Below, one piece after another: positions 9,486 through 41,941 of a DNA stretch of 41,941 nucleotides. Position 1 is the first letter of the stretch. Every line of letters begins with the position of its first letter. This stretch comes from a virus: UHGV virus genome UHGV-1354005. The stretch is one strand, 5' to 3'. A model generated the notes under the pieces. That model made no database searches, had not been told where the DNA came from, and saw only the letters and a program-made list of their open reading frames with translations. Made by a program: the position numbers and the translations under genes.

Positions 9486-9881
9486 TTATTGTTTGTTTGT
9501 TGCGTTTTTGGTGATGATATTTTTGATTCCCTCCATGAGAAAATGAGCTTTATTCTCTTCTTCGGGCGTTTCGTAAAAGATTTTTACGAAAGTATATTGT
9601 TGATATGTGGGATAGGTCATTTTGACTCCGTTTCTAATTAGGTAGTTGATTGTTTCTAGCCTTATTTTGTGAAATAGGTCTTGAGATAGCGGCCTATGAA
9701 AAACATTTGAGAATTCTAGGTTGAGGCTACCTATCAAACCAGAAATAGAGCATTCTAGCTTTATTTGTTGTCGCAACAAAGAGGATCTCTCTTTCTTTTG
9801 CTCTTTCATTGGTTCTTTCTTTTGCTCTTTCATTGGTTCTTTCTTTTGCTCTTTCATTGGTTCTTTCTTTTGCTCTTTCAT
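9486..9881 (-). CDS. hypothetical protein with N-terminal (MKEQKKEP)x4 tandem repeat
   Basis: 131 aa. A 24-bp nucleotide repeat encodes four in-frame Met-initiated octapeptide repeats at the N-terminus. Confidence 0.4.
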   Translation of the reverse strand: MKEQKKEPMKEQKKEPMKEQKKEPMKEQKKERSSLLRQQIKLECSISGLIGSLNLEFSNVFHRPLSQDLFHKIRLETINYLIRNGVKMTYPTYQQYTFVKIFYETPEEENKAHFLMEGIKNIITKNATNKQ

Positions 9882-9889
9882 TGGTTCTT
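9789..9889. repeat. perfect 24-bp tandem repeat, about 4 copies
   Basis: Plus-strand unit ctttcttttgctctttcattggtt repeated head-to-tail. It is read directly from the sequence. Confidence 0.9.
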
Positions 9890-9973
9890 CAAAGACCTAA
9901 TGCGAACATCAGGCTAAAGTAAATCAATAGTCCAAAAATAATTATAATTGTATCGATAATTATTTTTTGAATT

Positions 9974-11809: not shown

Positions 11810-12242
11810 TTTTTTGTTTTTCTTTTTCTTCTCCTGTTTCTAGGAAAATTTTTAAATCAAGTTCCCTGTTGTTTTTTAACAAACTAAATTTTTGTTTGTT
11901 ATCAACATAATCAATACTTAATGCGAAAGCGTCATTTTTATGATAAACTTCTTTCTTTAATTCTGGAAAGGTGTAAATTGCGAGTTCGTTTTTTATTGTT
12001 TTTGCTAATGATCCGTAAATTAACAACCCTTTAAATTTAACTCCTACAAAATCATTGATGAAAACAAAGCGATTTCCTACCCTAAAAAAAATCAAAGAAT
12101 CTTTTTTTTGGCATTGTAGTCGGAGTGCGTTTTGGATGAATCCAAGATTTCTTCTTTCCTTTTTAGGAACTAGGTATAAAAAGTTTTTCCCTTTTATCAC
12201 CTTTGATACTTTAGATAAAAAACAATCAATATTTTCTTTCAT
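11769..12242 (-). CDS. gamma-glutamyl cyclotransferase (GGCT/AIG2)-like candidate
   Basis: FKGLLIYGSLAK resembles the hhhYGSL/YGTL signature of the GGCT/AIG2/ChaC fold. The motif is not N-terminal, so this call is weak. Confidence 0.3.
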   Translation of the reverse strand: MKENIDCFLSKVSKVIKGKNFLYLVPKKERRNLGFIQNALRLQCQKKDSLIFFRVGNRFVFINDFVGVKFKGLLIYGSLAKTIKNELAIYTFPELKKEVYHKNDAFALSIDYVDNKQKFSLLKNNRELDLKIFLETGEEKEKQKNEYNIYNQTILDL

Positions 12243-12525
12243 TTAGTTCTAACGTTTTAAAGTTAAACCTATATTCTCGATTTTCCTTTAGTGGACATTT
12301 CCGAAAATCGCTAATCAAATCGCCTTCCGGACGTCTTTCTATTCTGAAAATCAATCTCCTAGGGTGTTTGTTGGCGATAAAGACTTCTATGATTGAGCCT
12401 ATTCTCCAATCATCTTTTATCGCCGAAAAAAAACACCGAAGACCGTGATTGAAATTTAGATAGGAGGTAGGGAAGATCCGCCTTTCTTCTTGTGGGTTTT
12501 CAAATTCAAATTGATACACTTTCAT
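12226..12525 (-). CDS. hypothetical protein (island)
   Basis: 99 aa, overlaps neighbouring genes. Confidence 0.35.
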   Translation of the reverse strand: MKVYQFEFENPQEERRIFPTSYLNFNHGLRCFFSAIKDDWRIGSIIEVFIANKHPRRLIFRIERRPEGDLISDFRKCPLKENREYRFNFKTLELNERKY

Positions 12526-12528
12526 TTT

Positions 12529-12858
12529 CTAACGGGAAGAATAATTGATAAGCACTTCTTGCGGCAAAATAACTTTAGATTGAAATGATATTCCAATAAT
12601 CGGCAATATTGTTTTTTCCTCTTTATCAACTCTAAAATTTTTTTTGTTCAGGCGACAAATATATGAAAACTCTTCCAATCCCGCATCGATCAACACGCAT
12701 TTAAGCATTTCTCTTTCAAAAAAGCCACACATTGGCTTTTTTAGCTCATAAATAATTTCATCTTCGATTGTTTCTCTTAGTTTTCTTTTTATATTTATTG
12801 TTGTTTTTTGACTCAAAAAACAACTTAAACATCCATATACATCTTTAATTATTTTCAT
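12529..12858 (-). CDS. hypothetical protein (island)
   Basis: 109 aa, tightly packed with its neighbours. Confidence 0.35.
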   Translation of the reverse strand: MKIIKDVYGCLSCFLSQKTTINIKRKLRETIEDEIIYELKKPMCGFFEREMLKCVLIDAGLEEFSYICRLNKKNFRVDKEEKTILPIIGISFQSKVILPQEVLINYSSR

Positions 12859-13172
12859 TTTATGAATATTTCTTTTTCAGTATTTTTATAAAATTTTGAT
12901 CTTCTTATTTGTTCGGCATAACTATTTCTCATTGAAATAATATCAGATACCGGAAGTTTCATTATTTTTAATTCTTCAATATGTCGAATTTCATTAAATA
13001 TGAATATATTAAAAATTTCTTTTTTGAGCGCCTCTTTTTCAGAATTTTTAAAAATTCCTATAAAAAAAACTTTTTTGTTTTTCAGGGAAACAATGAGAAA
13101 AAAATCATCCATTCCGACACGTTCGTAACACTCTAGCAAATATTCAGTTTTCATGAGACATAGTGTAATCAA
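12855..13172 (-). CDS. hypothetical protein (island)
   Basis: 105 aa, with a 4-nt start/stop overlap downstream. Confidence 0.35.
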   Translation of the reverse strand: MITLCLMKTEYLLECYERVGMDDFFLIVSLKNKKVFFIGIFKNSEKEALKKEIFNIFIFNEIRHIEELKIMKLPVSDIISMRNSYAEQIRRSKFYKNTEKEIFIK

Positions 13173-13521
13173 TAAATTTGAATAATTTTTTGGGAGTTAG
13201 ATAGTTAAGAGGCAATCTACTTAAACAACATTTGTCTTTTCTTCTGCATATAATATCAAGCTCTTCCTGCATTCTTCTTGTTTGGATCTGCACCCATTCT
13301 TTACTTATTCTTTTTTTGTCAAAACATTCACAAGGTGCAAATCCATAATCCATTAGGAAAAAGGTGTGATAATTTTTGACAAAGTAACCTTTCAGATAAA
13401 ACGGCCATAGTTTATTTTTTTTGTTTGCGAAAAAATCGCCCTTAGATTTGGAGAAAAATACGTTTGGAAATATGTAAAAATATTCCGACTCATCATTCAT
13501 GAAAATATAAGGTGTTTTCAT
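13144..13521 (-). CDS. hypothetical protein (island)
   Basis: 125 aa, rich in aromatic residues. Confidence 0.35.
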   Translation of the reverse strand: MKTPYIFMNDESEYFYIFPNVFFSKSKGDFFANKKNKLWPFYLKGYFVKNYHTFFLMDYGFAPCECFDKKRISKEWVQIQTRRMQEELDIICRRKDKCCLSRLPLNYLTPKKLFKFIDYTMSHEN

Positions 13522-13808
13522 CTATTTAACCCCTCTTTTCTCATCTTGTTGACAAGCGAAGAAATCTCTTCCCCTCCTGCAATCACTGAAATTTGCCTCC
13601 CTGTTGCCACAATAGCGCCCCTATTTTCGCCGTCTTCATAAATAAGACTAAACGACATCACTTGTCTTTTACCCACGATTGTTGATAGATAATTCCCGTA
13701 CTCTTCAATAACTTCTTTTTCCGTGTTTAGATTTTTCAAACATCCTAACACAACAACCCTATATTTCGCTTCCATGTTTTTTATTCTTTCATAGCTACTA
13801 TTCATCAA
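13518..13808 (-). CDS. hypothetical protein (island)
   Basis: 96 aa, with a 4-nt overlap. Confidence 0.35.
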   Translation of the reverse strand: MMNSSYERIKNMEAKYRVVVLGCLKNLNTEKEVIEEYGNYLSTIVGKRQVMSFSLIYEDGENRGAIVATGRQISVIAGGEEISSLVNKMRKEGLNR

Positions 13809-14064
13809 AAACTGCGAAACAGTAAAAATAACAAGTTGCCCTTTCTAGCATTTTTGCCTCTTCATCACTGCATCCTGTTTGTGCGTAATCGTTCAAATTG
13901 CCTAGCATGCGTTTCCTTACGTTTTTCAATGTGGGATTCTTAAAATATTCACCGTCATCAAGGTCATCCACCATTTCAAGTGCGTATTTTCTTATCTCTT
14001 TATTTGCTCCCTTTAGTCTTTCATAGAGCAATGCTTGCCTTGTTTTCTCTCTATTGTATCTCAT
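13798..14064 (-). CDS. hypothetical protein (island)
   Basis: 88 aa. Confidence 0.35.
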   Translation of the reverse strand: MRYNREKTRQALLYERLKGANKEIRKYALEMVDDLDDGEYFKNPTLKNVRKRMLGNLNDYAQTGCSDEEAKMLERATCYFYCFAVFDE

Positions 14065-14431
14065 TGTTTTTTTTGTTAAATATAAGTTTTCCTTTAATGC
14101 TAAAAGCCGTTGTATAGTCTCCTCTTTCCGTTTCCTCCAATTCTAGCCCAGCTCCTGCAAAAACTTCCCTTATTATCTCCCTTACCTTCTCTTTCTTTTC
14201 TTCCGATTCTCTATTCGAGTTTCCGAAAAAAAACAACTCTAACGTGTTAGCGTATTCCGTAATTGCGCCGTCTTCTACAAACTCCATAAAGATTTCTTCA
14301 AACCCTCCCACTCTTTCGTTTATCTCTCTTATTGCCTTTCGCTTCAACGGAAATACGTCTAACAACGGATATCTTTCTTCTATCTGCTCTTGTGTTCCTT
14401 TCATGTCTTTACTATATCTTTTTTCTCTCAT
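14051..14431 (-). CDS. hypothetical acidic protein; first gene of the leftward island operon
   Basis: 126 aa and Glu-rich. It is transcribed away from the 1.1-kb control region. Confidence 0.4.
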   Translation of the reverse strand: MREKRYSKDMKGTQEQIEERYPLLDVFPLKRKAIREINERVGGFEEIFMEFVEDGAITEYANTLELFFFGNSNRESEEKKEKVREIIREVFAGAGLELEETERGDYTTAFSIKGKLIFNKKNNEIQ

Positions 14432-14439
14432 TTGTCAAT

Positions 14440-15550
14440 AGCTTTTTATTATTTTTTTTCTCTCATCAACTTCTTTTTTTCTCCTATTCCCCCTCTCTTC
14501 CTTCATACCTTTTTGTCAACCTTTTTCTTCACTTCCTCCTGTCATAACTTTCCGGGGGGGGCTTTAGGGGGGGGGACGTTCCCTCTTCCTCCGTGTTTCT
14601 TCTCCCTCTTTCTCGTTGCGGGGGGTTGTAGGGGTAACGGCTAATCACGTCGAACGGGACTAACCAGCTTGCCCTCCCTCCTCCTAAATCCTCCTCCCTC
14701 CTAGCTGGCAAATGAGTTCATCATTGGATTTTTCGAAAAAAAGGCCATTTCCTGACATTTTGGAGTAAGGCGTTGATAAAGTGTGCGCTTAGGCAAGGCG
14801 AAAAATCTACATGCGAAATGTTGACAAATTTTCAATTTTGTGCATATCCGATTGCCGCGTTGTCAAGCTTGCCTCTAAAAAAGCGGGCAAGGGCGGCTAG
14901 CCTCAAGCATCAAGTTGCGGTTAGTGATCCGCTTGACAAGGGCGATTTTTGCACCGTTATCGGTAAAACGCAACAGTTTTTTTAGTGGAGCGTGCGCTTC
15001 TTGTGTGCAATCTTCGTAACTCATTGATACTCTATCATACTTCGCATAACACACATAATGCAAAGTCGGAAGCCATAGAGGTCAACCTTGAATAACGCAC
15101 TACAAGCCACCTAGCACGCGCCGCCTTTCCCGGATGATATGTGTATCGGCTCACCTCTCAAAAGGCCCGTACAAGCCAACCTCGCAAGCCGTTTTTCGGC
15201 ACAACCGTAAGAATTAGAATAATTATTGCAGTTTTGCCTAGTTTCTCGCATGTTTCGCCGCACGCACGCAGACCAGCATGAGGCAAGGACGACGGCCATG
15301 AGAGGGCGCAACTACCCCTAGGCGCTTGGTGTGTTGCCATGCCATACAGGGGGCGCCGGGGAAAAAGTCGCGGGTGTTTTGCGCTGGACAAAGAAGGTAT
15401 CACGCTGTGTAATAGGAAAAAAAAGAAAAAGAGATAGGAAAAAAGTAAAACGGCCTATAGGGAGAAAACGTGGTTTGTTAGAGAAAAAGAAAAAGGAGTA
15501 AAAAAAAGGTAAAAGGAAAAAATAGTATGTATAAGGAGAAAAAGAAGTTG
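14440..15550. promoter_or_regulatory. divergent control region (early-left and late-right promoters; possible origin or ncRNA)
   Basis: About 1.1 kb with no convincing ORF. It holds a CT-rich tract, G8/G9/G6/G4 runs and inverted repeats gttgtcaagcttg and gcttgacaag. It also includes ttgacaaattttcaattttgtg. Composition switches polarity across this region. Confidence 0.5.
14554..14575 (+). other. G-quadruplex-forming motif (G8-ctttag-G9)
   Basis: The sequence reads ggggggggctttaggggggggg, so four or more GGG tracts with short loops are available. G6 and G4 runs lie at 14620-14634. Confidence 0.5.
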
Positions 15551-15551
15551 A

Positions 15552-16064
15552 TTGGAGAGAAGAAGAGGGAAGAGGAAGAAAGAAAGAATAAATAAGAAAG
15601 AAAGAAGGAGAAGGGAGAAGAAGAGAGAAATGACAGGGAAAGAGCAGATGGAAGAGTTGTGTAAGGAGTTGAGAGAGGAGCTTAGGAGTGGAGTGATAAG
15701 GGGATTGGGAGAGGGGTTGGCGAGGCGAGGGATGAGTCAGGCGATATTCAAGCGGATGGGAGGGCCGGAGGTATGGGCGAGGGTGAGCAAAGGAGGAGTG
15801 AGGAGGGAAGGAGGAGAGGGGAAAAAGGAGGAAGAGGGAGAGTTGAAGAAGGGAGAGCTGTGTGAGTTTTTAAGCAGGGTGATAAGAGGGCGGGAGCTAG
15901 GGATGAGTGGGAAGGAGAAGATGAGTGCGGTGGGGTTGTACATGAGGTTGAAGGGGTGGGACAAGGTGAAGGAGAAGGAGGAAGAGATGGTAGGGGAAGA
16001 GTTGGTAGAGCTGTTAGGAGGGAGTAAAGGAGGAGGAGAGAAGAATGATACGGAGGAGGGTTGA
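15552..16064 (+). CDS. low-complexity E/K/R/G-rich ORF (possibly a highly charged protein, possibly a compositional artefact)
   Basis: 170-aa ORF in near C-free purine-rich DNA. Its amino-acid content is that dictated by GA-rich codons. Confidence 0.25.
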   Translation: MERRRGKRKKERINKKERRRREKKREMTGKEQMEELCKELREELRSGVIRGLGEGLARRGMSQAIFKRMGGPEVWARVSKGGVRREGGEGKKEEEGELKKGELCEFLSRVIRGRELGMSGKEKMSAVGLYMRLKGWDKVKEKEEEMVGEELVELLGGSKGGGEKNDTEEG

Positions 16065-16099
16065 CAGAGGGTATAAGGATGAAATAAAGTAAAGGCGGA

Positions 16100-16807
16100 A
16101 TGAGAAAGAACAGCGAAGGCGAGATAAGAGTGAGGTGTGCGGAGGCGGAGCGAGGATTTCTGGCAGGGGTGAAGGAGATGGTGAAGATGAGGGCAGAGAT
16201 GGGAGTGATGCCGTGGGGGAAGCATGTATTTTATCCAAGGATGTTGCACAAGGCGAGGCCGCAGAAGGTGAGTGATTTTTTAGTAGAAGATGAGAGGTGG
16301 TATTTGAGTGTGAGGGAGGTGGATATGGAGAAATGGGGGGAGAAGCATCATTTATACCGGAGTGCTAGTGGGAAGTATTATTTGGGGTTATTGTTTAAGA
16401 GTACAAAGGCGAGGAGTGTGAGGAGGAAGATAAGCCTTGGGACGCTAGACGAGGAGGTGGCGAAAGAGCGGAGGGAGTTGTTTTATGAGGAGTGGGAAGG
16501 GAAGCATCTGACATGGGCGCAATGTGAGGGAGCGAAGTGGAACATGAAGGTGTCTGGGTGTGCGGTGATAGGGAGCAAGAGTGCGTTGGAGAGGAAGGCG
16601 AGGGAAATGCAGGAGAAGGCGAACCGGGAACAGGCGAAGGCAATATGCAAGGAGTTGGCATTAAAGCGAAAGGCGCAGGTAAAACTGGAAGGATTTAAAA
16701 AGAAGACGGAAGAGATAAAGAGGCGGAGGGTGTTGATGGTAGGAGGGGTAGAGAAAATAGGAGACGCCGTAGTAAGGAGGACGAAGAGAAAAGGAGTGGA
16801 AAGGTGA
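16100..16807 (+). CDS. hypothetical protein
   Basis: 235 aa with more diverse composition (W, Y, H, C, F) despite the purine-rich DNA. Confidence 0.4.
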   Translation: MRKNSEGEIRVRCAEAERGFLAGVKEMVKMRAEMGVMPWGKHVFYPRMLHKARPQKVSDFLVEDERWYLSVREVDMEKWGEKHHLYRSASGKYYLGLLFKSTKARSVRRKISLGTLDEEVAKERRELFYEEWEGKHLTWAQCEGAKWNMKVSGCAVIGSKSALERKAREMQEKANREQAKAICKELALKRKAQVKLEGFKKKTEEIKRRRVLMVGGVEKIGDAVVRRTKRKGVER

Positions 16808-17013
16808 AAGCTATGAAAGAAAAAGAAGTAGGAATAATGGTAAAAGAGAAGAAGGAAGGAGGGTTGGAACTGCATTTGTTTCCGAGCAAGGAGGCAATGG
16901 CAAGGTGGCGAGGTGAGGACAGCGAGCATGACGTGGAGGGGCGATATCAGGAGTGGGTATTGCCAGTAGAGGTATTGGAAGACCTTTGGGCGGCGGCGCA
17001 AGGGGAAGAGTAA
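16804..17013 (+). CDS. hypothetical small acidic protein
   Basis: 69 aa, with a 4-nt overlap to the upstream ORF. Confidence 0.3.
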   Translation: MKAMKEKEVGIMVKEKKEGGLELHLFPSKEAMARWRGEDSEHDVEGRYQEWVLPVEVLEDLWAAAQGEE

Positions 17014-17144
17014 AGTTTTTTTAAACGTCCGGTGCAAGTGGCATCCTCAAATAACAAACAAACAATAGAAGTTGGGTGGAGGCGAGGAGGCGTGGTGCGC
17101 GAACCGCTACGTCCCGGACGGCCTATGCCCAGCAAAGGGAAAGT

Positions 17145-17705
17145 ATGAAAATAATCGTAGATATAGGGCATGCCCGGAAGACAGGGGCGGAAGGGAATGG
17201 GTTGGAAGAGCATGAGGTATCATGCGTAGTAGCGGGCTATCTGGTGGAAGAGTTGGGAAAACTTGGACATGAGGTGCAGGTGTTGGACTTTCCGAGGATG
17301 AGCAATGCGGCAGACTTGAACGAAACGATAAAGGCGGCGAATGCGTCTGGGTACGAGGCAGGAGTATCGTTGCATTGCGACAGCGCAAGTAAAATTGTAG
17401 GAGGCAAGGAGGTATTGAATCCGGAGCCACATGGGGCGCATGTATGCTTTTATCCGAGTAGCGTAAAAGGAGCACGGCTGGCGAGTGCGATAGCAGGTGA
17501 GCTGTGTGTATTGTTGCCGGGGAGGGCAAACAAAGTGCAGGGGCGAGCGAACCTTGCGATATTGAGGAAGACGAAGATGCCGTTTGTATTGTGTGAGTGT
17601 GGATTTATAAGCAACCCGGAGGACGCAGAGGTGATGAGGAGGCGGCCAAAGGAAATAGCGGAAGCAATAGCGAAAGGAGTGGACGCCTATGCGAGAGGAA
17701 AGTGA
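17145..17705 (+). CDS. N-acetylmuramoyl-L-alanine amidase (Amidase_3 family) endolysin
   Basis: From Met 17145: KIIVDIGHARKTGAEG (cf. IxIDAGHGGxDxGA), GVSLHCDS (cf. SIHADA) and FVLCECGFISNPEDAE (cf. EVGFISNPEE). The track start at 17076 is a GTG. Confidence 0.75.
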   Translation: MKIIVDIGHARKTGAEGNGLEEHEVSCVVAGYLVEELGKLGHEVQVLDFPRMSNAADLNETIKAANASGYEAGVSLHCDSASKIVGGKEVLNPEPHGAHVCFYPSSVKGARLASAIAGELCVLLPGRANKVQGRANLAILRKTKMPFVLCECGFISNPEDAEVMRRRPKEIAEAIAKGVDAYARGK

Positions 17706-18099
17706 GGAGGCAATGGACAAAGAGGCAGTAGGAGAGTTTGTTGACAGCATCGTAATGGCCCCCGAAGTGGGAGGTGTTGACGAGAAGGCAGAGGGATTTG
17801 TGTGGGTATTGAGGAGCAAGAACAAGTTTTTGGTAAGGGAGGGGAAGAAGGACAGGAGTGGGCAAAGGTGGAAGCGGAAGCCAGAATACGCTTACATGTA
17901 TTACCGAGGGATGATGGCAGGAGGGGTGCAGAAGGAAGCATCGTGCCTGTTATCGGAGGCGAAAGTGTTTGACCTGCCGTTGCCTAGGAGGAAGTATAAC
18001 ACGGAGGTATGGGACGTTGTGAGGTGCAGGCTAGTTGAGGATGCAGTAGAGGAACCGATATATAGCGAAGCGGAAGCGTTGCTAAAGTTTAACCGTTAG
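17689..18099 (+). CDS. hypothetical protein; positional candidate for terminase small subunit
   Basis: 136 aa, immediately upstream of TerL. No motif recognised. Confidence 0.3.
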   Translation: MREESEEAMDKEAVGEFVDSIVMAPEVGGVDEKAEGFVWVLRSKNKFLVREGKKDRSGQRWKRKPEYAYMYYRGMMAGGVQKEASCLLSEAKVFDLPLPRRKYNTEVWDVVRCRLVEDAVEEPIYSEAEALLKFNR

Positions 18100-18101
18100 T
18101 T

Positions 18102-19682
18102 ATGGAAGTAAGCGAGATAGCCAAGTTGTTGAAAGACCCGATGTGGAGGATATCGCATTTGTATGAGATAAAACTCACGGACGGGAACATCATACCATAC
18201 AAGCCGAGGAAGTTTCAGGAGGAGTTGCACCGGGCGTGTTACTGTGAGGGGAAGCGTCGTTTTTTGATACCAAAGAGTAGGCGTCAGGGGTGTTCTACGG
18301 CGATAGGTGTGATGATGGCAGACATGGCGGCTTTTGAGGAGGGGTGGAAACTGGCGTTGGTGGACAGGACGCTGGGGGACGCAAAGGAAAAGCTGACGGA
18401 CATTGTGAAGGTAGCCTTGGACAGTTTGAAGCGGAAATTGCCGGGGTTGTTTGAGATAAGCTATTTCCAGTCCCGCATCATAGTGAAGATGACAGGGAGG
18501 AGGGCCAGCGAGATAGTTGGCGGTAAATATTTCCGAGGCAGTGGGCTTGGTTTTGCCCACATATCAGAGCTTGGTACCATAGCGACGAGCGAACCGAAGC
18601 GAGCGGCAGAAATAGTAAACGGCACATTCCCGGCGGCCAAGGACGGCTTTATATTCGTGGAGACGACGGTACGAGGCGGGAAGCGAGGGGTATTCTACGA
18701 AAACGTGATGAATGCGTTGAGCGTGCCGGAGGAGGAGCGTGGGGATAAAGATTTCCATGTGGTATTTTTGCCGTGGTGGAGTGACGAGAACAACAAATCG
18801 AAGGGGGGAGAGGCGATAAATGCGGCCACAGAGAGTTATTTTGAGACGCTTAGGAGCAAGAGCGGGATTGTTGTAACCGAGGAGCAAAAGCGTTGGTGGC
18901 AACAGGCCAAGAGGCAACACGGGGTGTCGATGAATGAGGAGTACCCTTCGACCTTGGAAGAGGCTTTTGAGGTTCCGATGGAGGGTGCCATATTGGAGGC
19001 GGTGTTGGACAAGGCAGTACAGGAGGGCGCTTTTCGGAAGTTGGCCTATGACGCGACAAAGCCATGCTATTGCACATGGGACTTGGGCGCGCCGCTAAAC
19101 ACGATTAACCTTGTATTCCAGCTGGACGGCCCCTTCATCAACGTATTGGAGTTGGACAGCGGGTTGCATGCAAGCGAACGTGTGGCAGAGCGTGTAACAA
19201 GGCTCAAAAGCAAATATCCTACATTACAGGCAAACTTCCTTCCGCATGACGGAGGGTACATGACGGACACGGGGATGACACAGGCGCAGATGTGGCAGGA
19301 GGCAGGGTTGCCGGGCATACAGTTGTTACCGAAATCGAAAGACAAATGGATAGGCATCAATTACCTTTTGGGTATGTTTGACCTGTTCCGGTTTGACGTG
19401 GAGGGGACAGGCAGGGCGTATAGCTACTGGTTAAGCTACAGGTGCAAGCCGGAGGTAAGCGAGGGAGGCATATTCAAGAATGAGATTGTGCATGACAATG
19501 CGTCCCATTGGGCAGACCCGTTGAGGTATGTAGCGGAGGCGAAAATGAACAATTTGCTTGTGCAAGGTCCAACAACCCAAGACTATAAGGCAGGAATAAC
19601 ATGTACATTTGGGAAATATCATCGTGAGCGAAACATTGGACATAACTGGCGAGGACGGTTTGAGCGTACTTTCCGAATCTGA
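18102..19682 (+). CDS. terL: terminase large subunit
   Basis: 526 aa. The N-terminal ATPase region has PRKFQEEL and a KSRRQGCST P-loop-like segment. The C-terminal region looks like a nuclease with acidic residues (LPHDGGY, WADPLRY). The portal gene follows, as in the canonical order. Confidence 0.75.
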   Translation: MEVSEIAKLLKDPMWRISHLYEIKLTDGNIIPYKPRKFQEELHRACYCEGKRRFLIPKSRRQGCSTAIGVMMADMAAFEEGWKLALVDRTLGDAKEKLTDIVKVALDSLKRKLPGLFEISYFQSRIIVKMTGRRASEIVGGKYFRGSGLGFAHISELGTIATSEPKRAAEIVNGTFPAAKDGFIFVETTVRGGKRGVFYENVMNALSVPEEERGDKDFHVVFLPWWSDENNKSKGGEAINAATESYFETLRSKSGIVVTEEQKRWWQQAKRQHGVSMNEEYPSTLEEAFEVPMEGAILEAVLDKAVQEGAFRKLAYDATKPCYCTWDLGAPLNTINLVFQLDGPFINVLELDSGLHASERVAERVTRLKSKYPTLQANFLPHDGGYMTDTGMTQAQMWQEAGLPGIQLLPKSKDKWIGINYLLGMFDLFRFDVEGTGRAYSYWLSYRCKPEVSEGGIFKNEIVHDNASHWADPLRYVAEAKMNNLLVQGPTTQDYKAGITCTFGKYHRERNIGHNWRGRFERTFRI

Positions 19683-20067
19683 CAGGGTGTTAAGGAGGGA
19701 CGCAGGGGTGGGATTGAGTGAGGCATGGAAGCTTCACGAGGGAGGCGTGCGCCTCTATACCGGAGGCGGGCTTGTGTTGGGACACTACTACCGCATCGAC
19801 CCGGAGGAGGTTCGTGTGTGGGGCATGGAGTCAGAGTTTCTTCGGACAAGGCATATTTCCGATAGCGCTGTGGACTATGAGGAGGCCAATGGCTTTTTCT
19901 TTTTTTTGGGTATTGGAGACTATGTTGGCTTTTTAAAGCACTTAAAGGCAAGCACACACCTTCAATTTGGTAGTGGACATAGGAGAGGAAAGTTGTATGT
20001 TTACTCACGTAAGGAGTTGGACTTATACATAAAACTTAAACTAAGGAGTAAAAAATGTCAGGAGTAG
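19609..20067 (+). CDS. questionable ORF overlapping the terL 3' end (TTG start; first ATG far downstream)
   Basis: The open frame spans the 370-bp gap between terL and the next gene. Its coding status is uncertain. Confidence 0.2.
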   Translation: MGNIIVSETLDITGEDGLSVLSESDRVLRRDAGVGLSEAWKLHEGGVRLYTGGGLVLGHYYRIDPEEVRVWGMESEFLRTRHISDSAVDYEEANGFFFFLGIGDYVGFLKHLKASTHLQFGSGHRRGKLYVYSRKELDLYIKLKLRSKKCQE

Positions 20068-20351
20068 GAAGTGCAGTAGGAGCAGTAGTAGGAACAATCA
20101 TTGCGCCCGGCGTGGGGACTACAATCGGTGCGGCCTTGGGTGGTGCGGCTGATAGTGTTGCCAGCAAGGGTAAAGGTGAGTCAACCAAGGCACCGGAGGC
20201 CCCCAAACCTGTGAAGACGTATGAGACGCAACAGGAGGCAGTAAGGAGCCAGTCGGAGGCAAACAGGCGCAGGAGTTCTTTCTCAAATACGTTTGTTGCA
20301 TCCAGAGGGATGGGAACAGGCGGCATTGGTAAAAGCTTTTTAGGCCAGTAA
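20055..20351 (+). CDS. small Gly/Ala-rich protein
   Basis: 98 aa with an N-terminal GxGxAxG-rich hydrophobic region. Its stop abuts the portal start. Confidence 0.35.
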   Translation: MSGVGSAVGAVVGTIIAPGVGTTIGAALGGAADSVASKGKGESTKAPEAPKPVKTYETQQEAVRSQSEANRRRSSFSNTFVASRGMGTGGIGKSFLGQ

Positions 20352-20352
20352 T

Positions 20353-21978
20353 ATGTTGTACAACAACCAGAGTCCAAAGCAGAAGAGGGAGCAACTCTAT
20401 TCGTACAGACAGAGATATGTGTCTAACTGGCAACGAGTTGCGGAGTTTGTAGAGCCAGACAGGCGGTTTAACCTGAATGGAGCTGTACAGGAATCCACAC
20501 CTAATAATGAGGGATATATTGACACGACGCTTGAGCGTGCGTTGAGGCTGAACGCAACAGGCCAGCATGAGCTTGTAATGCCCAAGGCTAGTGAGTGGTT
20601 CACCTTTACGCCCTTGGCGAAAGCGGCAGACAGGGAGCTGGTGACAAGCACCATTGACGACGAGTATGCCGAGACTGCAAGGGTTGTGTCCATGTTCATG
20701 AGGAACAGCAACCTGCACACGGCAAGCGAGCTTTTCTTCTGGGACAGGGCGGCTTATGGCATTGGCGCTTTTTGGGCAGAGTGGGACACAAGGAAGCGAG
20801 GCTTTAGCTTTTATTCAATCCCCGTTGGGACATTCATGGTGGACAAAGACAAATTTGGCCGGATGAATATGTTCTGTTGGGACGACTGGATGCGAAACCA
20901 AGACATTGTAGCAACGTTCCCGGAAAAGAATTTGCCTCAAACGGTAAAGGATAAATACATGGCCAACTCCAACAGCCCGGACAACTACCTTGTGTTCCAT
21001 TTGTTGGAGCGAGTGGAGCGCACCGGGGACGAAGGGCTTATTGCCCGTGCGGACGGCAAGGAGTGGGTGCTTCGTTCCGTGTACGACGCAACAGGCGACG
21101 TATTGCTTGAGCAATTCTTCAAGAACTGTCCTGTCATTTGTTGCAACTGTTTTGACTTGCCCAACAGCCCGTATGGGTATGGGTTTGGGAAGGTTTCCTT
21201 GGCAGACCAGATTGAGCTGGTGAATTGCCTGAAAGCGTTGGCAGAGGCGGCCCAGCAGAAGATTTTCCCGCCGATGCTTGTACCCGAAGGCTTCCAAGGG
21301 AACATTGGCTATGGTGCTGGGGAGGTAACAACCTTTAACCCGCTGAACATTCAGGCAAGGCCGTCGCCCCTGTTCCAACAGGCTTCACAAACCTCTGACT
21401 GTCAATGGCAAATTGAGCGGTTCGAGCGTGTCATCAATGAGGCATGTGACGTTAATTTGTTTATGCCGCTGTTGCAGGTGAAGGACCCGCAATACATGAA
21501 GGCCACAGTAGCGCAGATGATTGAGTCTTATTCGGCACGTATCAGCTCTACGGCTTATACGAGGTTGATTGAGCAATTCCTGCAACCCTTGGTGGACTTT
21601 TGCTACAACACGCTGGTGCAACATGGTTATGTCCGTCCTTTGAGGGATTACCATATCCAGTTCTGCACGCCGTTCCAGATTCTTTTGGACAGGCATCAGC
21701 CGACCTTGTTTACGGAGTTCCTGCAAACGGTAGTCATTCCTCTTTCACAAATCGACCCGACCGTTCTGGACTCTGTGAATGCTGACTATATTTTCCGAAG
21801 GAGCATGCTTGATATTGGCCTGTCACCCAAGTACTCTAGGACGGAGGCGAAGGTGGAACAGATGAGGAGAGAACGCCAAGCGGCTCAAGACGAGGCAAAC
21901 CAGATGGCTAATGCCAAGACATTCTCGGAAGTGCAGAAGAATCTTGGAGCGGCCAGCAAAGACATGAATCTGATTTAA
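20353..21978 (+). CDS. portal protein (positional call)
   Basis: 541 aa, directly after terL and before the scaffold and capsid genes. Confidence 0.5.
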   Translation: MLYNNQSPKQKREQLYSYRQRYVSNWQRVAEFVEPDRRFNLNGAVQESTPNNEGYIDTTLERALRLNATGQHELVMPKASEWFTFTPLAKAADRELVTSTIDDEYAETARVVSMFMRNSNLHTASELFFWDRAAYGIGAFWAEWDTRKRGFSFYSIPVGTFMVDKDKFGRMNMFCWDDWMRNQDIVATFPEKNLPQTVKDKYMANSNSPDNYLVFHLLERVERTGDEGLIARADGKEWVLRSVYDATGDVLLEQFFKNCPVICCNCFDLPNSPYGYGFGKVSLADQIELVNCLKALAEAAQQKIFPPMLVPEGFQGNIGYGAGEVTTFNPLNIQARPSPLFQQASQTSDCQWQIERFERVINEACDVNLFMPLLQVKDPQYMKATVAQMIESYSARISSTAYTRLIEQFLQPLVDFCYNTLVQHGYVRPLRDYHIQFCTPFQILLDRHQPTLFTEFLQTVVIPLSQIDPTVLDSVNADYIFRRSMLDIGLSPKYSRTEAKVEQMRRERQAAQDEANQMANAKTFSEVQKNLGAASKDMNLI

Positions 21979-39195: not shown

Positions 39196-40047
39196 ATGGC
39201 AACGAAAAAAAAGGTAAAAGCAGTAGAGCCGGAAGTGGTTTCCTCTGTTGAGCCAGAGGTGGCGGCAGTCCCCATGACAATGGCGGCGGCCACACCTCGC
39301 GCCAACGGACAGTCGACCAACGGTTTTGCTAAGGTAGAACAGGGGAAATCCTATGTTCTATCCGTCAATGCCCCTTCTGGTTCGGGAGAAGTCGAACTAT
39401 TGGCGGCAGATAGTGATACACAAAGCGAACCTGACATGTTTTCTCTTCTTTACACGAAAGTGGAGAACTCTATGCAGATTCCCTTTGTGGCTGTTTCTTC
39501 TTGGGTATATGTGCAAGCAGGTAATAGTAACATTAACTGGCTTGTAACACCGGCAAATTTTAGTCTCGCCGTTCCCGGTGTGTCGTCCGGTGGCGGCGAA
39601 AGCTTTGACCCGGAAGCGCCCCAAAAGATTTCAGGTGACTGGCAGTTTACAGGCGAATTAATTAGAACGGTAAAGGCATCCCCAGCGGCCAATGATGTCT
39701 TGAACAAGGCAATGGGGGATAACCTTTATATGACGCTTGATACCGAGCAAGAAGTTCAAGGGGCAAAAAATTTTGAAGGTAATATAAAAATACGAACAAT
39801 CCAGTCAGATATTACCGATAAAGGGCCTACTGTTAAACTGGTAATTTGGACATTCCTATGCAACAACGGGAATATGGTTATATACCAGTACACCACCACC
39901 TCTTTGGTTGGCTTACAAAGTGCTGACACAGGAGGCGGTTTCAATGTGGCTAAAAACGGCCAAGCCACCTGTGAAAACTCTCTTCTGGTAAGGGGGGGGT
40001 ACGACAATAAACTCTTTAAGTGCTACAGGGCCAGCGACTTTCGATAA
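39196..40047 (+). CDS. tail-fibre-like protein, N-terminal part (reading frame disrupted at a G8 tract)
   Basis: 283-aa ORF whose last 17 codons follow a G8 run at 39992-39999. The -1 frame continues as a tail-fibre-like sequence. Confidence 0.5.
   Translation: MATKKKVKAVEPEVVSSVEPEVAAVPMTMAAATPRANGQSTNGFAKVEQGKSYVLSVNAPSGSGEVELLAADSDTQSEPDMFSLLYTKVENSMQIPFVAVSSWVYVQAGNSNINWLVTPANFSLAVPGVSSGGGESFDPEAPQKISGDWQFTGELIRTVKASPAANDVLNKAMGDNLYMTLDTEQEVQGAKNFEGNIKIRTIQSDITDKGPTVKLVIWTFLCNNGNMVIYQYTTTSLVGLQSADTGGGFNVAKNGQATCENSLLVRGGYDNKLFKCYRASDFR
39992..39999 (+). repeat. G8 homopolymer inside coding sequence (frameshift or phase-variation site)
   Basis: Counted directly as aggggggggt. Confidence 0.9.
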
Positions 40048-40078: not shown

Positions 40079-40291
40079 TTGAGTTCTGTTATAGCACAGG
40101 ATGATTTGACTGAAACAACGGTTGCTCCTGTAGGAAGTAACGATGCAAGGTATATTCAATTCAAATCCATGACCAAGGCAGAATATAACGCTTTGGAAAC
40201 GAAGAGCAATTCAACCATTTACTTTTTAACCGACCAGAATATGTGGGCTATCGGCGACAAGGAGCTTGTCACGTCTGATATGCCCGCTTAG
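40079..40291 (+). CDS. C-terminal tail-fibre domain, reachable only by a -1 shift at G8 (no ATG; track start is TTG)
   Basis: The frame is open from the G8 tract. It reads GGTTINSLSATGPATFDNTVTVTAGNKILSS..., a typical tail-fibre repeat pattern. Confidence 0.45.
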   Translation: MSSVIAQDDLTETTVAPVGSNDARYIQFKSMTKAEYNALETKSNSTIYFLTDQNMWAIGDKELVTSDMPA

Positions 40292-40296
40292 TTGGT

Positions 40297-40307
40297 GGGG
40301 GGGGGGG
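40297..40307 (+). repeat. G11 homopolymer, intergenic, 5 nt after the TAG stop
   Basis: Counted directly as gttggt followed by G11 and then tga. Confidence 0.9.
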
Positions 40308-41207: not shown

Positions 41208-41290
41208 AGCTTGACCGATAGAGTCTATTAAGCTATCATCCACCTGTATTCATCAAACAGTGGATGCCATTGCGTTAATGTCACCATTCT

Positions 41291-41341
41291 CCGAGGGCGC
41301 AGGGTTTTTGCTCATGTTTTACCTGCGCCCTCGGTTTTTTT
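41291..41341 (+). terminator. rho-independent terminator
   Basis: ccgagggcgcagg pairs with cctgcgccctcgg in a 13-bp stem, followed by a T7 run. Confidence 0.55.
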
Positions 41342-41941
41342 GTGCCAGTTGAGGTGGGCCTAAAAAAATAACCCTTGTATGACACAATTATAAATCCCTT
41401 ATAATAAGGACATTGTAATAAATCTCCAAGCAATCCTCGCCTTTTTTATGTCAAACTTTAGGCTTGATTTTTTGAGGGGTGTGTCGTTAAAATCTTGTTC
41501 AAGGAACAGGGCGGTTAAGTTGATTGTTTTCCTTTGGCCGCTCCAAGGCTCAATCTCCCTCGTGGTTAGCAACAACCAAGTGTTTAGCAAATAACTTGGT
41601 TCTCTACAAGAAAAGAGTTCGGATATGGCAAGCATATCCTTCATGATTTTTCAAAAGTTTTGATTTACGCCTATCGGCTATGGAGCCAAACAAAGTTGTG
41701 GGCTTGGTTAGAGAAACAAAGGGATTAGAAAATAAATGGTTTTAAAACAGTTCTAATTTGGAACACGTTGGTTAGATAAAGTATGTAAGAATAAACCATT
41801 TAATATTTAATTATCAGTTTTATTCCTTCGTTCGACTAACAGGTTGCATAGAGCGGCTAACAAGAGAGCCAAGTTCGAAGGTGTTAGCGAAACGATAACA
41901 TAGACCACTTCGAAGTTATTAACTACCGTCTCCAACCACAA

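Follow-up and report, generated by a model that had tools for sequence, protein, structure and literature searches.

A gene-free interval between the divergent operons of a human-gut phage may act as a transcription-control region bracketed by G tracts and mirror repeats

In phage lambda the promoters PRM and PR lie back to back between opposed gene blocks, ~80 bp apart and with palindromic boxes repeated between them, and the cI mRNA made from PRM starts at the A of its AUG. Other described systems resemble parts of the locus reported here. GOLLD and ROOL are RNAs of 600–800 nt that occur in a phage context and hold no ORF, and G tracts of changing length serve as contingency loci, as in the receptor-binding genes of Campylobacter phages. 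In Bacillus, purine bias as a form of Rho avoidance has been demonstrated experimentally (PMC13323073). The homopurine/homopyrimidine mirror repeat, seen for instance in an element of the c-MYC promoter and in long runs of GAA.TTC, is described in two articles (PMC11667243, PMC12214015) as the defining motif of H-DNA, a structure that stalls polymerases, and mirror symmetry within such a tract is given in the first of these as the sequence requirement for an intramolecular triplex.

We compared these systems with one interval of a phage genome of about 41–42 kb, which makes up the window (the whole stretch of DNA analysed, 41,941 nucleotides). On the basis of its terminase, endolysin and exonuclease genes this is a tailed human-gut phage, and its relatives were found in ~60 human-gut assemblies. 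A CRISPR array with an Akkermansia-type repeat carries spacers against this group, evidence from which the host is probably Akkermansia; this array (L006) was the only one to match, none of the spacers of four arrays from Akkermansia metagenome-assembled genomes (n=38) matching the phage. GenBank phages searched by DNA similarity gave no match to the window, and bacterial genomes contained neither a relative of the phage nor a prophage or host-genome copy of its terminase. The literature on Akkermansia phage genomes held nothing bearing on 14405–15629, and the proteins encoded on either side of this region matched no known family in Pfam, PHROGs, NCBIfam or PDB sequences.

A preliminary description had placed a non-coding switch, devoid of credible ORFs, between divergent operons at 14440–15550. 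That reading is supported by our analysis and only its borders needed correction, since the true gene-free interval is slightly larger, spanning 14405–15629 (~1.2 kb) between two divergently transcribed genome halves. It is delimited by two genes:

14402–14404, minus strand: start codon of the first leftward gene (14051–14404), which begins ATGAAAGG in 43 of 43 instances
15630–16064, plus strand: first rightward gene, 144 aa, rich in E, K, G and R, of no known family

The leftward gene starts at ATG 14404 rather than at an upstream ATG (14431), because one relative (L009) has an in-frame stop after the latter, and the rightward gene starts at ATG 15630 rather than at TTG 15552, because relatives with short leaders do not have the upstream part. 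Variable sites in the central part of the interval are spread over the three codon phases (53/64/60), giving no codon periodicity, and for each of the longer open frames at least one relative has a disrupting 1-nt indel, located in a run of A or T. An 81-codon frame on the minus strand is interrupted in a distant lineage (lineage B), its third positions not being enriched for variation, and a Pfam search of 14405–15629 returned no matches. Periodicity, frame conservation and Pfam thus rule out hidden small genes, and the interval contains no protein-coding gene. The reported flip in strand polarity is equally clear, GC skew passing from −0.21 at 14–15 kb to +0.45 to +0.64 at 15–17 kb. We interpret 14405–15629 as a divergent transcription-control region that acts as DNA and includes non-B-DNA elements, a reading to which we assign roughly even chances. 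The preliminary description did not mention the leaderless promoter geometry, the nearly C-free leader or the two perfect mirror repeats described below, which are the strongest signals of the region.

Leftward transcription is predicted to begin at the very edge of the interval:

14411–14438, minus strand: P_L, a predicted sigma-70-type promoter, −35 TTGACA at 14438–14433, 16-nt spacer, −10 TATAGT at 14416–14411

P_L agrees with the sigma-70 consensus at 11 of 12 positions, and exactly 6 nt separate its −10 element from the ATG in 43 of 43 instances. The geometry TTGAC[AT]-16-TAnnnT-6-ATG is kept throughout these instances, which comprise 14 sequence variants from the window's own lineage (lineage A) and lineage B, and the −10 element and the 6-nt stretch vary in sequence while their spacing stays invariant. 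By the usual rule a 6-nt gap would place +1 on the A of the ATG, and the leftward mRNA is accordingly predicted to be leaderless, starting at the A of AUG as the cI mRNA of lambda does. Inspection of the sequence by eye gave no fit to sigma-54-type or Bacteroidetes-type promoter motifs. A strong P_L would serve a small, AT-rich and mosaic set of genes, probably early ones. The likeness to lambda also extends to back-to-back promoters between opposed gene blocks with palindromic boxes repeated between them. However, the promoters of the phage are ~1 kb apart, no repressor, Cro or integrase was recognised in it, and the pattern is the reverse of that in an immunity region, with a mosaic first leftward gene beside a constant control region. 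A lambda-like immunity or operator region is thus not what we found, the left genes being mosaic, the boxes invariant and the flanking genes without a repressor family or a helix-turn-helix protein; a conserved pairing of repressor and operator, which had been suggested as a check, likewise yielded no cognate regulator among these genes.

Rightward transcription has a less certain start, followed by a leader of extreme composition:

15385–15413, plus strand: P_R candidate, TGGACA at 15385–15390, 17-nt spacer, TGTAAT at 15408–15413
15421–15629, plus strand: purine-rich, nearly C-free leader of the rightward operon, ~210 nt, 87% purine, 1.9% C

Across 40 haplotypes the P_R region hardly varies, and it is kept in lineage B, there with CATAAT; in a further distant lineage (lineage C) GAAGAAGGGTA..TGTAAG is kept but the −35 element is not. 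We regard P_R as a candidate only, because its −10 element does not have the consensus A at position 2 (G in lineage A). Its motif is unique. The rightward operon, which holds the lysis, packaging and structural genes, would be driven from here, at the right edge of the conserved core described below. Its transcript would then cross a leader that varies in length from 55 to 232 nt among relatives and whose RNA, being nearly C-free, would offer no loading site for Rho, and antisense transcripts, being pyrimidine-rich, should be terminated. The depletion persists in the first rightward genes, whose sense strand has 8% C, and recurs in lineage C, with a GC skew of 0.8. Rho avoidance by the rightward leader, which we infer from this composition, resembles the purine-biased strands described in PMC13323073 in that the sense strands leading away from the switch are strongly purine-rich and C-poor and the antisense strands pyrimidine-rich. 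The bias in the phage is, however, much more pronounced (the leader has 1.9% C, and GC skew reaches 0.64 and 0.8) and is lost a few kb away from the promoters, and the earlier work concerns Bacillus and its relatives, not Verrucomicrobiota or phages.

Between the two promoters lies a conserved non-coding core with several internal modules:

14640–15420, no strand assigned: conserved non-coding core, even base composition, 40 distinct haplotypes
14821–14827, no strand assigned: TTGACAA box, after which comes TTTTCAATTTTGTGCAT (invariant, to 14845), with no usable −10 downstream
14850–14947, plus strand: extended inverted repeat followed by ATTTTTG, perfect arms at 14860–14868 and 14931–14939
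15009–15061, no strand assigned: Block 1, 53 nt, almost invariant in lineages A and B
15175–15420, no strand assigned: right-hand module, common to lineages A, B and C

The core shows 95% mean column identity and almost no indels across its 40 haplotypes. Its nucleotide diversity (pi, 0.03–0.11) compares with 0.2–0.3 plus mosaic gaps in the adjoining left genes, and is roughly double the value for the right-arm genes. What had been described as 700 GC-rich base pairs has 48.9% GC with even base use, a value that stands out as high only when set against the left arm (32% GC). The right half is kept in both more distant lineages (B and C) and is 73% identical to lineage B, against ~69% for the flanking coding DNA, whereas the left half is not recognisable in lineage B. 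Block 1 contains the palindrome TGATA-CTC-TATCA (15025–15037) and CATAAC/CATAAT boxes, and the coding DNA adjoining it is only ~69% identical between lineages A and B. The right-hand module is made up of CGCAAGCCGTTTTTCGG, an AT-rich 17-mer (15212–15228), CCCCTAGG (15315–15322), a G-rich stretch, GGGGAAAAA and GAAGAAGGTA; it includes a two-allele cassette of equal length (~15203–15320), and in lineage C it amounts to nearly the whole intergenic region of ~480 nt. The motif TTGWCAA occurs five times in 508 bp, against ~0.1 expected, and TTTTGTGCAT at the TTGACAA box is kept in lineage B too. Three internal TTGACA boxes were considered as promoters and rejected, because none has a −10 element at 15–19 bp. 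No core motif recurs elsewhere in the window.

The inverted pair noted in the preliminary description, and called operator-like there, is real, with perfect 9-bp arms TTGTCAAGC (14860–14868) and GCTTGACAA (14931–14939) that extend imperfectly to 14850–14868 and 14931–14947. To meet one 9-bp inverted repeat by chance would not be surprising, but this one is nearly invariant in the 40 haplotypes, its arms never varying and no compensatory changes being seen; it could be a putative plus-strand hairpin or terminator, or a protein site. The repeats of the preliminary description, like the G tracts, are kept in relatives, which had been proposed as a check on the region. Taken together, the boxes of the TTGWCAA type, the inverted repeat, Block 1 (53 nt) and the right-hand module of ~250 bp suggest a set of candidate protein sites, which would jointly set the timing of the two operons. 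The length of the core is a point against this reading, 780 bp being a long stretch for operators.

To the left of the core, between it and P_L, the following elements were found:

14440–14640, no strand assigned: pyrimidine-rich tract (plus-strand letters) upstream of P_L, 83–86% C+T outside the G runs
14554–14575, plus strand: G8-CTTTAG-G9, a G-tract pair of variable length, which forms both a canonical G-quadruplex (G4) motif and a mirror motif with G arms
14566–14600, plus strand: weak terminator-like hairpin, from a consensus scan only, in which the G run pairs with a downstream CU tract, then a U-rich tail

The tract and the G runs had both been read correctly from the window: C+T reaches 83% at 14405–14553 and 86% at 14576–14619, and the runs are G8 (14554–14561), G9 (14567–14575), G6 (14620–14625) and then G4. 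The pyrimidine tract is indel-rich between relatives, with pi up to 0.18. The two long runs were found in every relative of lineages A and B, with lengths of 7–10 and 7–12 and several linker variants, and G6 and G4 only in a minority. The G-quadruplex motif proposed earlier therefore holds for the two long runs, which by themselves fit the pattern of four G runs (each at least 3 long) with loops of 1–7 nt and are conserved, and not for the four-tract version. This predicted G-quadruplex motif has the top G4Hunter score in the window (2.68) and is one of only two canonical G4 motifs there. As in contingency loci, tract lengths (7–12) differ between otherwise close genomes. The pair is, however, intergenic, 115–140 bp upstream of P_L, and as it lies outside any promoter spacer or reading frame no on/off mechanism is evident. 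A further G8 tract occurs in the same phage, at a frameshift point within a tail-fibre gene.

Two perfect mirror repeats, one at the left end of the core and one in the leader, complete the inventory:

14673–14701, no strand assigned: MR1, a perfect pyrimidine mirror repeat CCTCCCTCCTCCT-AAA-TCCTCCTCCCTCC (H-motif), 29 nt, 13-nt arms and 3-nt spacer
15555–15627, no strand assigned: MR2, a homopurine mirror repeat of 73 nt, likewise perfect, with a single central A between arms of 36 nt, ending 2 nt before the ATG

MR1 is bracketed by CCAGCT (14664–14669) and AGCTGG (14703–14708) and has its perfect form in 30 of 40 haplotypes; when windows were shuffled locally, mirror repeats whose arms reached 12 or more numbered 0.14. 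MR2, in which 4 of the 73 bases are T, has arms (35–38 nt) that are perfect in ~30 of 38 distinct leaders while the adjoining leader varies, the exceptions being three leader variants with single asymmetric changes and five short leaders without MR2. It is missing from these five related variants and is therefore dispensable, and it is also absent from lineages B and C. Tandem Repeats Finder detected no tandem array at MR2. Such changes as occur in MR1 and MR2 are few, asymmetric and uncompensated, so the conservation of symmetry rests on invariance and not on covariation. Both MR1 and MR2 are mirror-symmetric homopurine/homopyrimidine tracts, which is the sequence definition of an H-motif, and they share with known H-DNA motifs not only this perfect symmetry but also a location next to promoters, where negative supercoiling arises. 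Formation of a triplex at either site, and any effect of it, we infer from this symmetry and position.

Several other explanations of the interval were weighed against a control region acting as DNA. The structured RNA suggested in the preliminary description is not supported. Rfam gave no match in the whole window at gathering thresholds, the best E-values within 14300–15700 being 0.46 and 0.98 (~23 bits, against thresholds of 95–104), and searches for tRNA and tmRNA found none. The minimum-free-energy z-scores of the core are −0.37 and −0.46 on its two strands; among 243 consensus pairs predicted by RNAalifold 74 are broken and 5 show double changes, and column shuffles gave z between −1.2 and +1.1 in the half common to distant lineages. 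On these measures a large structured RNA was rejected for both strands, and the core differs from GOLLD and ROOL accordingly, having no Rfam match and no thermodynamic or covariation signal. An RNA helix read from an apparent covariation of GGCTAGCC/GGCAACCC with TTAGTGATCC/TTACTGTTCC was rejected because no register keeps the pairs, linkage being more likely. Smaller or less structured RNAs, either a ~100-nt plus-strand hairpin RNA (14850–14947, ending ATTTTTG) or a long, weakly structured one, would account for a core conserved without coding signal, and the consensus fold of the inverted repeat (z of −2.5 on the plus strand, −1.4 on the minus strand) does favour the plus strand, because its G–U pairs become A–C on the other. 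The 3' part of the hairpin (14931–14953, plus strand) was also flagged as terminator-like, but four such sites were found against 3.0 expected in shuffles, so that their number, 14566–14600 included, is not above chance, and its U run has 5 bases, two of them able to pair within the extended stem. With no credible promoter upstream of the hairpin, and its sequence not kept in lineage B, we consider non-coding RNA a quite unlikely function of the core. A replication origin, perhaps primed or activated by transcription into the G-rich, R-loop-prone flanks, also seems unlikely. The cumulative GC-skew minimum at ~15 kb, both arms being G>C on the outward 5'→3' strand, would fit one, as would a conserved, non-coding, indel-free core with an invariant AT-rich 17-mer, the many G4Hunter-positive segments on the non-template strand downstream of P_R and the DnaC-like helicase loader that the phage encodes. 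The skew (0.4–0.8) is, however, far too large and too local, and we do not read it as a sign of replication because it tracks the orientation of the genes and decays within ~6 kb. No more than 17 bp make up the AT-rich stretch, and the core has no DnaA-box-like repeats or iterons, direct repeats of the iteron type (~17–24 bp) being absent from all of 14405–15629. A more typical iteron-like array lies outside the core, at 9790–9973, where a perfect repeat of 24 nt in 4.2 copies (9790–9889) adjoins a 90-bp AT-rich gap.

That the phage DNA has its physical ends, or a packaging site (cos or pac), at the G-tract region is highly improbable. At least ten independent assemblies break there, at ~14500–14650, and in two of them a Nextera adapter is joined immediately to the second G run. 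G/C-rich cohesive ends are known from several cos phages. Contig ends cluster equally, however, at the 9.8 kb tandem repeat (14 contigs) and in the AG leader, and as all these sites are of low complexity, breakage during assembly fits. The G tracts are crossed without a break in many assemblies, the window among them, one contig (L007/L025) joins up with itself within the leader, and the likely small-terminase gene is 3 kb away, directly before the large-terminase gene; physical ends at the G tracts are thus not supported over assembly breakage. It is also very unlikely that the interval is mostly spacer of low function, its composition, G tracts and mirror repeats being by-products of mutation bias and slippage. 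Indel-rich flanking tracts, the loss of MR2 and much of the leader in some relatives, the unrecognisable left half of the core in lineage B and a core diversity above that of the right-arm genes all point in that direction. Slippage or inversion cannot, however, give rise to a perfect, complex, non-tandem mirror repeat with 36-nt arms, the human genome's long mirror repeats being reported, in PMC12214015, to arise only by tandem-repeat expansion. Neither would spacer DNA explain a core free of indels across 40 haplotypes, or a 53-nt block that stays the same between lineages with 30% divergence in their genes.

For the preferred reading, a divergent transcription-control region, the bracketing elements can be fitted into the scheme as follows. 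Divergent transcription from P_L and P_R would generate negative supercoiling, under which the purine/pyrimidine elements on either side (the length-variable G-tract pair, the 29-nt MR1 and the 73-nt MR2 in the leader) may leave B-form, and they would most likely modulate or insulate both promoters. A bolder version, which we think unlikely as a whole, holds that MR2, MR1 and the G-tract pair form a triplex/quadruplex 'supercoil sensor' that leaves B-form under supercoiling from the divergent promoters and either times or insulates early against late transcription or primes R-loop replication on the C-free flanks, its mirror symmetry being under selection. Long mirror repeats have been surveyed only in the human genome, where PMC12214015 describes them as expanded tandem repeats, whereas MR2 is complex in sequence and lies in a phage 5' leader. 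Conservation of a non-tandem mirror repeat, set against this tandem-only origin, would argue that symmetry, and hence triplex DNA, is selected.

Akkermansia is a gut bacterium of medical interest whose phages are scarcely described, and this phage lineage recurs in dozens of human-gut assemblies. Of practical use is that its assemblies break at the G tracts, the purine leader and the 9.8 kb tandem repeat. The region supplies concrete parts, namely a predicted leaderless early promoter, a nearly C-free leader that fits the recent idea of sequence-encoded Rho escape, and a long, complex purine mirror repeat. If the supercoil-sensing version were true, it would provide the first description of a functional H-DNA element from the control region of a phage, and selection on symmetry would make MR2 a simple bacterial system for testing the role of H-DNA in vivo.

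The interval between the divergent operons of the 41.9-kb window, a tailed-phage genome, is a conserved gene-free control region that extends from 14405 to 15629. Leftward genes (∼2.4 to 14.4 kb) are AT-rich, with 30–33% GC, and rightward genes from 15.6 kb on have about 50% GC; the arm opposite the terminase and endolysin encodes a PD-(D/E)XK/DUF2800 exonuclease, a RuvC-like resolvase and a DnaC-like loader.

Features of the control region and two rightward-arm genes
14438-14411, minus strand: leftward promoter P_L, −35 TTGACA (14438-14433), 16-nt spacer, −10 TATAGT (14416-14411), then 6 nt and ATGAAAGG
14673-14701: mirror repeat MR1, CCTCCCTCCTCCT-AAA-TCCTCCTCCCTCC, perfect in 30 of 40 haplotypes
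15385-15413, plus strand: candidate rightward promoter P_R, TGGACA (15385-15390), 17-nt spacer, TGTAAT (15408-15413)
15555-15627: mirror repeat MR2, 73 nt, purine-rich, 36-nt arms around a single central A, ending 2 nt before the start codon
17076-17705: Amidase_3 endolysin
18102-19682: large terminase, PHROG match

No GenBank phage matched the window at the DNA level, and none of them has a terminase more than 31% identical to that of the window. Relatives comprised 19 IMG/VR contigs and 42 human-gut metagenome contigs, most of the latter 39–42 kb long. These include lineage A (terminase 97–100% identical to the window's), lineage B (L009–L011, L041 and L050) and lineage C (L014–L017 and L019; terminase 65% identical). 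The terminases of L009–L011 are about 91% identical to the window's and the DNA about 70%; L041 and L050 were placed in lineage B by DNA identity (about 74%) in the core, the conserved non-coding stretch 14640-15420. The IMG/VR contig L006, one of the relatives, opens with a pair of CRISPR repeats (GTCGCACTCCGCAAGGAGTGCGTGGATTGAAAC) plus a spacer, followed by phage sequence from window ∼14601, with TTC in the phage just upstream of the junction, and is a chimeric assembly joined through a spacer; at L006:118-216 a CRISPR leader, two type I-C-like repeats and the spacer run into phage. Among 185,579 species representatives, only Akkermansia MAGs carry this exact repeat; the first spacer of the array matches other relatives at 100%, and the terminase has no relative in bacterial genomes. 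The host is therefore probably Akkermansia, and the phage is unlikely to be a resident prophage.

Across 40 distinct haplotypes the core shows 95% identity per column and almost no indels; indels are present in the pyrimidine tract and the purine leader (15421-15629). Nucleotide diversity (π) is 0.03–0.11 in the core, 0.005–0.08 in right-arm genes and 0.2–0.3 in the first leftward genes, which are mosaic with 40–65% gaps. The small AT-rich genes at 12000-14400, downstream of P_L, are mosaic in otherwise 95%-identical genomes while keeping the first codons ATGAAAGG, and may be interchangeable genes with early or anti-defence roles. When lineages A and B are compared, the left half of the core aligns only in short islands, among them GGGACnAACCAGyTTGCCC and TTTTGTGCAT; the right half (15008-15420) reaches 73% identity, slightly above the 68–70% of neighbouring coding DNA, and includes a 53-nt block (15009-15061) that is almost invariant. 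In lineage C the intergenic region is only about 480 nt, largely a recognisable version of window 15175-15420 with a CGCAAGC-T run, an AT-rich stretch, CCCCTAGG, G-rich runs, GGGAGAAAAG and GAAGAAGGGTA..TGTAAG. A ∼119-nt cassette in this right module has two alleles of equal length, about 50% identical, and the occurrence of the lineage-B allele in three lineage-A genomes (L008, L042 and L075) shows exchange between lineages. In L004:1-383, where that contig begins, purine-rich coding-like sequence takes the place of the core ahead of the purine leader; either the arrangement differs in this relative or the assembly was misjoined through low-complexity DNA.

The features named in the preliminary description were all found in the sequence, and its view that no credible ORF lies here was borne out. 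The annotated leftward start, ATG 14431, was rejected because an in-frame stop follows it in L009 and P_L overlies it. The rightward start was set at ATG 15630, since in the short-leader relatives L012 and L006 the core reaches the same ATGACAGG... within 55–59 nt; these relatives also rule out a TTG-initiated coding extension from 15552. In alignment A1 (nine lineage-A sequences, the window and eight relatives), the 177 variable core sites split 53/64/60 by phase, revealing no codon periodicity. Open frames of ∼100 codons recur but switch frame among relatives owing to 1-nt indels in A and T runs. The sole frame open throughout lineage A, 81 codons on the minus strand (15158-15403), is interrupted in lineage B and shows no excess of variation at third positions (by the phase counts, 23 of 70 variable sites). 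Pfam had no match for any of the seven longest ORFs.

The suggestion that the core is a structured RNA was not supported. An Rfam search returned nothing, and folding of the 781-nt core is no more stable than that of shuffled controls (z = −0.37 and −0.46 for the two strands). RNAalifold on the 40-sequence alignment gave 243 plus-strand pairs: 114 are variable, 5 carry a double change and 74 fail to pair in at least one sequence; on the minus strand, 12 double changes stand against 83 broken pairs. For the half that lineages A and B have in common, whose divergence lends a column-shuffle test real power, consensus energy lay −1.2 to +1.1 s.d. from column-shuffled alignments. The sole local signal coincides with the inverted repeat already described, a putative operator-like pair (A4 columns 200–330, window ∼14839-14968; z = −2.5 on the plus strand and −1.4 on the minus). 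Its perfect arms (14860-14868 and 14931-14939) can be lengthened by G-U pairs to span 14850-14947, with ATTTTTG coming next, so that a plus-strand hairpin or terminator is possible. However, the arms are almost constant, what few changes occur beyond them disrupt pairing, there is no credible promoter upstream and the lineage B sequence differs there.

An origin had also been proposed for the core, yet a tandem array at 9.8 kb with its AT-rich gap resembles an iteron origin more closely than does any part of the core. This perfect 24-nt × 4.2 repeat (9790-9889; 12-nt sub-period), variable in copy number and unit sequence among relatives, lies at the 5′ end of ORF 9486-9881, adjoins a 90-bp AT-rich gap (to 9973) and represents either repeated coding sequence (MKEQKKEP...) or an origin of iteron-like type. 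The ends of near-full-length assemblies fall into three clusters: 14 contigs end at this repeat, at least 10 at the G-tract region and a third group in the purine leader, where one contig self-closes. As all three are low-complexity, we read them as assembly breaks rather than physical genome ends. A Nextera adapter is fused just after the second G run in two contigs; L039 and L069 (oriented left ends) are public contigs on which the adapter, ..AGATGTGTATAAGAGACAG, was left abutting phage sequence. A second long ORF-free stretch occupies the window ends (41208-41941 and 1-207), with a clear intrinsic terminator (∼41293-41341) and a promoter-like TTGTAT-19-TATAAT (∼41375-41405).

P_L occurs as 14 sequence variants in 43 instances from lineages A and B, with −10 elements TATAGT, TATTAT, TATGAT and TAGAAT and seven versions of the 6-nt stretch, and its 16-nt and 6-nt spacings are constant in all 43. 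By the usual σ70 spacing rule, transcription from P_L would start at the A of AUG, and the mRNA of the first leftward gene is therefore predicted to be leaderless. The P_R motif, which occurs once in the window, is a candidate only: its region is nearly invariant in lineage A and reads CATAAT in lineage B, position 2 of the −10 is not the consensus A, and the −35 is not kept in lineage C. The palindromic heptamer TTGWCAA is found 16 times in the window (9.3 expected), including five copies within 14432-14939 (about 0.1 expected). One of the five is the P_L −35, the copy at 14513-14519 is not conserved, and the three inside the core, conserved and without a −10, are tentatively read as putative protein-binding sites. 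The sense-strand motif GAAGTTGAT flanks the core at 14453-14481, about 30 nt upstream of P_L, and at 15536-15564, about 80 nt before the rightward ATG; its GAAG/GATG variants tend to agree on both sides, although not in all relatives.

Base usage is even in the core (A.26, C.25, G.24, T.25), whereas in 15421-15630 purines make up 87% of bases and C 1.9%. Over the first 1.4 kb of rightward genes C accounts for 8% and G for 43%; in the leftward genes C accounts for 12% of the sense strand. The bias declines across about 6 kb. GC skew is 0.64 in the window's first rightward genes and 0.8 in lineage C, and because the latter comes with little AT skew, the common denominator is avoidance of C in the sense strand. 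C depletion spans window 15630-21000 and L017:8500-12000, where E, K, G and R dominate the encoded proteins. How large and how local the skew is speaks against its having arisen through replication. Where RNA polymerase runs ahead of ribosomes, C-poor, purine-rich coding strands shield transcripts from Rho, and the pyrimidine-rich antisense RNA undergoes termination (2026; PMC13323073). A long, C-free untranslated leader would be protected from Rho and is where such protection would be needed, making Rho avoidance the likely reason for its composition.

By G4Hunter score, G8-N6-G9 ranks first in the window, which contains one other canonical G4 motif. This long G pair, proposed to form a G-quadruplex, is kept in every lineage A and B genome (run lengths 7–10 and 7–12, several linkers), but the additional G6 and G4 runs invoked occur only in a minority. 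Elsewhere, a G8 tract (39992-39999) near the 3′ end of ORF 39196-40047 is a likely slippage or phase-variation point, because the +1 frame stays open for 86 more codons, to 40290; this extension resembles a tail-fibre C-terminus, and a G11 tract (40297-40307) directly follows the stop at 40290.

A mirror-repeat scan returned two perfect repeats, MR1 and MR2, both within the gene-free interval, where 0.14 with arms of at least 12 nt were expected from locally shuffled windows. MR2 is perfect in about 30 of 38 distinct leaders (arms 35–38) although the sequence just upstream varies; single asymmetric changes occur in three leader variants, and five short leaders lack the repeat, so it is dispensable in some relatives. 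MR2 is absent from lineages B and C. Lineage B has a shorter purine mirror repeat with 13-nt arms, GAGAGGAGGAGAG-GCGA-GAGAGGAGGAGAG (L011:5053-5082, L041:2530-2559), about 200 nt downstream of the P_R-like site. According to one account, H-DNA requires mirror symmetry within a purine/pyrimidine tract and stalls RNA and DNA polymerases (PMC11667243); another describes the human genome's long mirror repeats as arising solely from tandem-repeat expansion (PMC12214015). MR2, a candidate H-DNA element, is not a tandem repeat, and its complex, perfect sequence thus points to selection on symmetry. The most interesting content of the control region, unlisted in the preliminary description, is a fixed, predicted leaderless promoter geometry, a cytosine-free leader and perfect mirror repeats.
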